Positions 46,037 through 46,849 of a stretch of DNA of 64,000 nucleotides are shown in pieces. Made by a program: the position numbers and the translations under genes. Numbering within the stretch: the stretch's first letter is position 1; each line of letters begins with the position of its first letter. This stretch comes from Escherichia phage EC128, in the sequence record ON210139.1, one strand, 5' to 3'. The notes below the pieces were generated by a model. It saw nothing but the letters and a program-made list of their open reading frames with translations, was not told where the DNA came from and ran no database searches.

Positions 46037-46849
46037 TTATTCGACCTTCTTAAATTTGCAATTGTCAAAATGGTATCTTTTAGCGTGAGACTTATCCATG
46101 ATTTTAGAGCAGTGCGGGCATTTTAATTTTTCTCTGCTATGAGATACACCCGTGATAACTTTGCATTTATCGCCGTGGTATTTTCCATAATTTCCTACAT
46201 CACATATAATTCCGCAATGCGGGCAATTTCTCTTTTCGACTTTTGCAAGACCCTTAGATAGTTTATTTAAATACTTTTCGTATTTTTGGGGGTCACTTTT
46301 AAGCTCAGACCAAAAATCTTTCATCTGTTTAGAACATCTTTCTTTATATTCTAACATTTCGTTTTCTGATAACGATTCCAAATATTTCACTGAAGCTTTT
46401 CGAATATTTGCATTAACTTCTTTTCTCTTTTCATCTGTCCATAAAGATTTAGTTTTTTTAATGCCTTTTCCGGCTTTTTTAATTCGTTCCTGTTTTAAAT
46501 TTGGTGATAGATTCGCCCAAAACTTTTTAATGGTTTCTGATCTAATTTTAGATGTTTCCTCTTTAATCCATCCGTAATCTTTACTTACAATTCTCTGCTC
46601 TTTTGTACCCTTGGAGAATTTTATTAAAGCATAAGCCATTTCAGAATTTCGGTGTATTTTAAAAAGAAGCTCATGTGCAAAATAGTGTTCTCTTGCTGTC
46701 AGTAAAACCTTGTTTTCTCTAGAATCATCTCCTCCCATGGATTTTGGGACAATATGGTGTGATTCTGTATAATAATCTAATTTTTTCTTATTAAGACCTC
46801 TTTTAAGAGATCTTTCTATAAGAGAGTCGTAAATTTTAGTATAATTCAT
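46037..46849 (-). CDS. free-standing HNH homing endonuclease with C-terminal zinc-finger module, 270 aa
   Basis: HNH motif [27 protein letters not shown]; C-terminal CPHCGI..HGDKCK..CPHCSK..HFDNCK resembles the intron endonuclease C-terminus; wedged between genes 13 and 14. Confidence 0.85.

Follow-up and report, generated by a model that had tools for sequence, protein, structure and literature searches.

The stretch analysed here, 64,000 nucleotides of Escherichia phage EC128 (sequence record ON210139.1; hereafter the window), carries between the neck genes 13 and 14 a free-standing gene for an HNH endonuclease, which is likely to be a mobile, probably active homing endonuclease cassette of the Mob type. 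The open reading frame (ORF), its two neighbours and the junctions that join them were located from the ORF list, the sequence and the comparison with phage T4:

46846–47775, minus strand: gene 13 (neck protein, head–tail adaptor), the upstream neighbour, 309 amino acids; gp13 has 98.4% amino acid identity to T4
46037–46849, minus strand: free-standing HNH endonuclease ORF, 270 amino acids plus TAA, ATG start
45265–46035, minus strand: gene 14 (neck protein), the downstream neighbour, 256 amino acids; gp14 has 99.2% amino acid identity to T4
46846–46849, minus strand: ATGA, in which the gene 13 stop and the ORF start overlap (ORF ATG at 46849–46847, gene 13 TGA at 46848–46846)
46033–46039, minus strand: TAA-T-ATG junction of the ORF and gene 14 (TAA at 46039–46037, T at 46036, gene 14 ATG at 46035–46033)

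The first-pass annotation of this DNA had described a 270-amino-acid ORF wedged exactly between genes 13 and 14; its coordinates, the ATGA overlap and the 1-nt gap are all borne out, and the strand, on which it was silent, is the minus strand. It had also named no ORF at this position in T4, and the junction comparison agrees: in T4 (NC_000866) the last base of gene 13 is 94553 and the first of gene 14 is 94555, so that the junction reads TAA-T-ATG and contains no ORF. The spacing of the ORF and gene 14 in the window equals that of genes 13 and 14 in T4 (TAA-T-ATG in both), and gp13 and gp14 have the same lengths as their T4 counterparts. Aligned at the junction, T4 reads ...GGTTAATATGG... and the window ...GGATGA-ORF-TAATATGG...; by codon, T4 has GTA GGT TAA T ATG GCT and the window GTT GGA TGA-ORF-GAA TAA T ATG GCT. 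The insertion of a free-standing HNH homing-endonuclease-type gene at the late 13–14 junction is thus precise, in keeping with the earlier view of an inserted element in a late operon. An assembly contig (L085, from Logan SRR21280024, 94,970 bp) is identical to the window over gene 13, the ORF and gene 14, and the top DNA match to this region in the phage collection reaches 97.6%.

About 509 phage (Tequatrovirus) records match the gene 13–14 region, and 46 of them, including T6, CrRp10, YUEEL01 and fPS-2, match it at full coverage and so have the ORF. A tblastn search returns the same 46 records at ≥95% protein identity, with the next relatives below 60%. An equivalent ORF is not a common possession of T4 and all its relatives, since T4 and approximately 90% of the close relatives lack it. 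The exact protein is indexed in 150 public-assembly blocks and lies between gp13 and gp14 in all 10 of the 10 places examined. In most carrier records of RefSeq and GenBank, that of T6 among them, its product is entered as 'homing endonuclease' or 'HNH endonuclease'. The ORF is therefore optional and sporadic, at a constant and precise insertion point.

Its position among the late morphogenesis genes, with the terminase genes 16 and 17 two genes further downstream, would also suit a packaging or head-completion accessory nuclease, comparable to the HNH proteins encoded beside the terminase genes of cos phages, a known class of terminase-adjacent proteins (PMC3592412). However, T4 and the roughly nine-tenths of close relatives without the ORF assemble and package normally, genes 14 and 15 intervene before the terminase genes, so that the adjacency and conservation typical of that class are both missing, and the nearest relatives of the protein are Mob homing endonucleases. 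T4-type phages package by the headful mechanism and are not known to have an HNH partner. We regard a packaging role as extremely improbable.

On the minus strand, a pattern search of 42091–54170 does not find the perfect late-promoter box (TATAAATA), and inside the ORF the box is matched only with one mismatch. The nearest perfect box upstream is the following:

54171–54178, minus strand: perfect late-promoter box TATAAATA, approximately where gene 9 would start if the gene lengths equal those of T4

Promoter-less, translationally coupled cassettes are typical of the T4 mob and seg genes (PMC2988022). The arrangement suggests that the ORF is transcribed within the late mRNA and that its translation is coupled to that of gene 13, as described for several T4 mob and seg genes. 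A late promoter of its own, or an internal promoter serving gene 14, was rejected, as there is no perfect box and a sigma-70-type scan remains at chance level. RNA structure masking the ribosome-binding site of the ORF was likewise rejected: a small CUCC/GGAG hairpin is possible, but the 121-nt region folds no better than its shuffles (z = +1.7). Further upstream, between wac and gene 13 (47788–47805, minus strand), a GC-rich hairpin (TGGGGCCGCAAGGCCCCA) is followed by a T-run and looks like a terminator or an RNA-stability element inside the late operon.

Domain composition of the ORF product

The protein divides into an N-terminal nuclease domain, a helical linker and two C-terminal zinc fingers, the last of which invite comparison with I-TevIII, the HNH endonuclease of the nrdB intron, encoded in full elsewhere in the window:

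46610–46849, minus strand: Mob-type HNH nuclease domain, amino acids 1–80, from BLASTP matches to T4 MobB–E; putative catalytic residues H31/H32, N46, H55 and H59
46241–46582, minus strand: helical linker, amino acids 90–203, five long helices in the AlphaFold2 secondary structure
46163–46225, minus strand: zinc finger 1, C209-X2-C212-X12-H225-X3-C229, aligned with I-TevIII zinc finger I
46058–46120, minus strand: zinc finger 2, C244-X2-C247-X12-H260-X3-C264, aligned with I-TevIII zinc finger II
739–1548, plus strand: I-TevIII, nrdB-intron HNH endonuclease, full length; 99.6% DNA identity to RB3 I-TevIII (X59078)
RB33 (contig L091) 2001–2717, between genes 45.2 and 46, opposite strand: ORF of 238 amino acids that joins a Mob-type HNH domain to three fingers resembling those of I-TevIII; 31% identity to the window ORF

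Profile searches match the product to Pfam HNH_4 (E 1.2e-5; a score of 25.6 bits where the cut-off is 22) and to PHROG 655, 'homing endonuclease' (E 1.8e-52), while a scan of NCBIfam gives no match. Alignment with the T4 Mob proteins, proposed in the first-pass annotation, yields clear BLASTP matches to the N-terminus: MobD with 46% identity over 117 amino acids (E 2e-31), MobB with 35% over 217 (E 7e-33), MobE with 42% over 111 (E 5e-24) and MobC with 37% over 97 (E 6e-15). The Mob-like stretch spans about 100–220 residues, varying with the alignment partner. Residues H31/H32, N46, H55 and H59 are invariant in both a 7-sequence and an 80-sequence alignment of homologues, and six aligned Mob-type N-terminal domains share 24 invariant columns. 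An AlphaFold2 model built from the 80 homologues (overall pLDDT 93.1) predicts a beta-beta-alpha HNH core (strands 29–32 and 47–50, helix 52–66) with core pLDDT above 93. These matches assign the product to the HNH (beta-beta-alpha-metal) superfamily, with a nuclease domain that groups in the T4 Mob clade, MobA–E, of which MobA and MobE are the studied members.

The linker (amino acids 90–203) matches no Pfam family above that family's cut-off. Matches of the family profile in a sequence-profile search of the PDB are limited to HNH cores, such as those of McrA and Cas8-HNH, and Foldseek returns nothing from the PDB under E 0.1: no match to the whole fold, only local matches to HNH domains and to C2H2 fingers (the classical zinc finger).

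The first-pass annotation had pointed out a resemblance between the C-terminal Cys/His region and that of the nrdB-intron endonuclease, and this resemblance is real: the motifs it quoted are present in both proteins, and the C-termini show 33% identity over 78 amino acids in BLASTP (E 2e-7; residues 192–267 of the ORF product against 193–266 of I-TevIII). Both fingers match, as sequence motifs only, the consensus CX2CX12-13HX3C given for I-TevIII, whose own fingers are zinc-binding and must be present if the enzyme is to bind DNA (PMC1865063). The model places two small beta-beta-alpha units at the finger positions, the first predicted with strands 206–208 and 215–217 and helix 218–224, and the four putative zinc ligands of the second (C244, C247, H260 and C264) are invariant in the 80 homologues. 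Dimerisation of I-TevIII has been mapped to residues 194–241, within its C-terminal 75 residues (PMC1865063).

The same annotation went on to place the two proteins in one family, which would make the ORF product a paralogue of I-TevIII escaped from the nrdB intron. The overall layout fits such a descent: both proteins begin MNY.KI, have an N-terminal HNH domain, are about 270 amino acids long and end in two CX2CX12HX3C fingers with 33% identity. Its nuclease domain, however, is 35–46% identical to the T4 Mob proteins. The aligned proteins are similar beyond the catalytic motif in the fingers, but BLASTP finds no match between their nuclease domains; these belong to different Pfam families (HNH_4/HNH for the ORF product, HNH_3 for I-TevIII), and a comparison of the Mob profile with the I-TevIII nuclease domain by hhalign is marginal (E 2.5e-4, probability 43%, 34 columns). 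Nor does the ORF lie in an intron: protein-coding genes flank it on either side at a spacing of 0–1 nt. The same type of finger, in one to three copies, is also attached to many other Mob-type HNH proteins, which indicates module shuffling. The RB33 ORF has such a composition and is also found in RB68, ST0 and others, annotated as 'putative site-specific intron-like DNA endonuclease'; many metagenomic proteins combine a Mob-type HNH domain with one to three CxxC-X12-H-X3-C fingers, often after NUMOD3 repeats. The combination of a Mob-type HNH domain and I-TevIII-like fingers is thus not unique to the ORF. Since the HNH domains are only remotely alike and the fingers are similar, the ORF product and I-TevIII appear to have a DNA-binding module in common through shuffling, and not to be of common descent over their whole length, and we consider an escape from the intron very unlikely.

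The two genes assort independently among phages: T6 has only the ORF, RB3 has only I-TevIII, and fPS-2 and SHFML-26 have both. T4 retains no more than a truncated relic of the I-TevIII gene, which is full length in 84 phage records.

Diversity and linkage around the insertion

We compared 14 carrier loci with 13 ORF-less loci of Tequatrovirus by direct alignment of all 27. Among the carriers, the nucleotide diversity of the ORF is 0.0043; genes 13 and 14 of the same 14 genomes, where the variation is mostly synonymous, have values of 0.045 and 0.029. The ORF has 14 variable sites, 12 of them synonymous and 2 non-synonymous. A diversity seven- to ten-fold below that of the flanks suggests recent rapid spread, not passive drift. 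The only fixed differences between carriers and ORF-less loci are 8, all of them within the final 21 nt of gene 13. Linkage to ORF presence is complete (r2 = 1.0) at gene 13 positions 910–929 (window 46847–46866), falls to approximately zero at positions 909, 903 and 897—within 1 nt of the block—and is approximately zero from gene 14 position 12 onward. Carrier flanks are often nearer to ORF-less alleles than to those of other carriers. The population data fit a mobile element, with a compact cassette of about 834 nt made up of 21 recoded bases and the 813-nt ORF. A foreign base composition was looked for and rejected: the GC content of the ORF (31.9%) falls within the range of its neighbours (30.6–38.4%), and the third-position A+T content is similar. 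The composition thus gives no sign of recent import from outside the T4-like phages.

The same data bear on whether the gene once encoded a homing endonuclease but has ceased to home. Such a gene could persist through the harm it does to co-infecting relatives (partial exclusion), through a role as a DNA-binding regulator, or only because it has had too little time to decay, and ordinary recombination would then account for its patchy occurrence. [quoted passage not shown] Against such a remnant stand the intact and invariant catalytic and zinc-ligand residues, the ratio of 12 synonymous to 2 non-synonymous sites, and the reduced diversity of the ORF, which points to recent rapid spread. We judge a gene that has ceased to home to be unlikely; as exclusion and homing are two outcomes of one cleavage, it would differ from an active homing cassette only in degree.

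The block of complete linkage contains a sequence that could serve the translation of the ORF:

46846–46866, minus strand: block of 21 nt that closes gene 13 at its 3' end, in absolute linkage with the ORF (r2 = 1) and with 8 fixed differences
46860–46864, minus strand: GGGAG, Shine–Dalgarno-like sequence 10 nt upstream of the ORF ATG, from the comparison with T4

All 14 carriers have the block and none of the 13 ORF-less loci does. In the phage collection, a search in blastn mode with a 121-nt synthetic junction query, in which the block is joined to gene 14 without the ORF, gave a best match of 93.4% among about 605 full-length junction hits, and the block occurs there only together with the ORF. 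Such footprints of ORF loss are also absent from the IMG/VR and JGI metagenomes, a weak negative because those collections hold a single carrier contig. One ORF-less allele, from Shigella phage SP21535 (contig L095, 1240–1262), is intermediate in having one of the eight substitutions (ATT to GTT, Ile to Val).

The block recodes the C-terminus of gp13 from PPFGILVG to PPVGVLVG, and both of its valines are found at the same positions in other T4-like gp13 proteins. The ATG of the ORF arises from two linked changes (GGT TAA to GGA TGA), and the Shine–Dalgarno-like sequence from two further linked substitutions (TGGAA to GGGAG). As four changes produce these two elements, the block would serve, at least in part, as the cassette's translation-initiation region, encoded within the last bases of gene 13. 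It may also protect against self-cleavage or have been left behind by the donor lineage. In carrier alleles the insertion splits the junction, and the adjacent 21 nt have the 8 fixed changes.

The 13/14 junction in other T4-like lineages

Orthologues of the ORF product occur in three contigs of more diverged T4-like lineages. Those in contigs L093 (57% identity) and L092 (52%) lie directly upstream of a gene with a Pfam hit to the T4 neck protein gp14, and the one in L094 (52%) lies between ORFs that resemble the gp13 C-terminus and gp14 by sequence, with no Pfam hits on record. The L093 orthologue also starts in an ATGA overlap. Conservation among these 52–57% orthologues is highest in the finger region.

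Among 65 T4-like loci from IMG/VR, genes 13 and 14 adjoin tightly except in four lineages, where a Seg-like gene of the GIY-YIG type (PHROG 314) is inserted:

L033 (phage VR26), 3427–4062: Seg-like GIY-YIG gene at 13/14
L042, 3500–4084: Seg-like GIY-YIG gene at 13/14, with a SegE_GIY-YIG Pfam hit
L070, 355–969: Seg-like GIY-YIG gene at 13/14
L063, 3660–4433: Seg-like GIY-YIG gene at 13/14

In 45 phage records, among them VR26, SP18 (where the annotation is 'segC'), MX01 and Klebsiella phages, relatives of these genes lie next to neck genes; whether they occupy 13/14 or 14/15 is resolved for a minority of the 45. With HNH orthologues and Seg-like genes at the same place, the 13/14 junction is a recurrent landing site for two endonuclease families.

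Several observations from the surrounding region belong beside these. In L063 (2978–4572), duplicated pieces of the gene 13 3' end and the gene 14 5' end surround the Seg-like insert, and the gp14 N-terminus MATFDSSLFAKLE.. occurs twice, one copy being fused to the Seg-like ORF; the duplications are either the footprint of an illegitimate insertion or an assembly artefact. A second, different ORF of 198 amino acids lies between genes 14 and 15 of the metagenomic contig L092 (1621–2217), with an HNH-like HH..N..H motif and one CxxC..H..C finger, and in phage JQD51 a Seg-like gene apparently occupies the same interval. The neck-gene cluster as a whole looks like an endonuclease hotspot. In a different part of the window (2191–2625, plus strand), a 144-amino-acid ORF with a GTG start and a GIY-YIG-like motif (VIYAI..LVYIGKT) occupies the T4 denA position (nrdB/RNA ligase gene).

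Homing model and comparison with known systems

The reading that we favour, an active homing cassette, would operate as follows. The late neck-gene mRNA would carry the ORF, translated by ATGA coupling to gene 13 with the aid of GGGAG in the last gene 13 codons. In a mixed infection, the protein would recognise the uninterrupted 13/14 junction of an ORF-less phage; its two I-TevIII-like zinc fingers would bind the DNA, the HNH domain would nick or cut nearby, and the cut genome would acquire the cassette through recombinational repair. In the carrier, protection would come from the splitting of the site by the insertion, from its recoding in the 21-nt block, or from both. The enzyme may act as a dimer and cut both strands, unlike the nicking MobE and MobA, since the zinc-finger region of I-TevIII holds its dimerisation interface.

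Several points weigh against this model or parts of it. Half of the block (4 of the 8 changes) is accounted for by the Shine–Dalgarno-like sequence and the ATG, so that a role in immunity is not required, and the mismatches of the block would themselves suppress recombination inside it. The contigs L094 and L092, which contain 52% orthologues, keep a T4-like gene 13 end (CCATTTGG(A/G)AT), which argues against a general immunity role of the block. Dimerisation and double-strand cutting are possible by analogy, from nothing beyond the 33% identity to the I-TevIII C-terminus. As to sampling, the record counts (46 of 509) include GenBank/RefSeq duplicates; the carriers were collected as exact matches to the protein, a choice that suppresses non-synonymous but not synonymous variation, and the ORF-less loci by exact gp14 identity, which biases amino acid but not synonymous variation. 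We also found no paper in the searchable literature on the ORF protein, whether on its 13/14 site, target or activity. Petrov et al. 2010 count the mob-like genes of T6, which may include the ORF, without giving their positions (PMC2993671). In T6 and several dozen further genomes the ORF already bears the label of a homing endonuclease.

A bolder form of the active-cassette reading strikes us as possible, if doubtful. The protein would be a natural chimera of a normally nicking Mob-type HNH domain and the dimerising DNA-binding fingers of I-TevIII, making a dimeric double-strand break at 13/14 with the block as a genuine self-immunity determinant, and the junction would be a deeply conserved landing pad, a convergent target of HNH and GIY-YIG enzymes across T4-like genera. 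Such a landing pad could cause localised exclusion of neck-gene markers in T-even crosses.

An active homing cassette would leave the current understanding of its class unchanged, as an ordinary though clean example. It would bring an uncharacterised site-specific enzyme, with a putative target in a late structural operon and not in nucleotide-metabolism genes, into the small group of T-even homing endonucleases that have been studied. The mobile cassette is defined with unusual sharpness, at 834 nt with linkage ending there, and T6 and T4 offer natural donor and recipient alleles that differ only at the cassette. The union of a Mob nuclease with fingers of the I-TevIII type is an example of how phage homing endonucleases shuffle their modules, and the enzyme could show whether dimerisation turns a nicking HNH enzyme into a double-strand cutter.

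Among known systems, the ORF product shares with the T4 Mob proteins the N-terminal signature MNYxKIY...YTExHHIIPxxMGG...N-V-LT--EH--AH, at 35–46% identity. Like the T4 mob genes, its gene is free-standing and intergenic, overlaps the upstream gene, has no perfect late-promoter box and occurs sporadically in T-even phages. It differs from them in its site: the ORF is inserted at 13/14 in the late structural operon, whereas the T4 mob genes adjoin genes of DNA and nucleotide metabolism (39, alpha-gt, nrdG/nrdD, nrdC.11 and nrdB/nrdA; table in PMC2988022). The C-terminal half, with its helical linker and two CCHC zinc fingers, is also unlike that of every T4 Mob protein. MobE and MobA nick one strand (PMC2988022).

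With I-TevIII the protein has in common the two tandem C-terminal CX2CX12HX3C fingers, a similar length and the HNH catalytic superfamily, and the aligned C-terminal stretch takes in the mapped dimerisation region. I-TevIII dimerises through its C-terminal region (PMC1865063), and a double-strand break with 2-nt 3' extensions is characteristic of its family. By contrast with the free-standing ORF, which has no perfect box, I-TevIII is intron-encoded, of the HNH_3 type and equipped with its own late-promoter box, a perfect TATAAATA at 704–711 just upstream of the gene. The RB33 ORF and the metagenomic proteins have the same architecture, a Mob-type HNH domain followed by fingers, but their identity to the ORF product is only about 30%, their insertion sites are different, and many have NUMOD3 repeats in place of the helical linker. 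The Seg-like genes of VR26, L042, L070 and MX01 share the 13/14 site and the free-standing layout, as do probably, for the site, those of SP18 and some Klebsiella phages, yet they encode an unrelated family of nucleases with no sequence similarity to the ORF.

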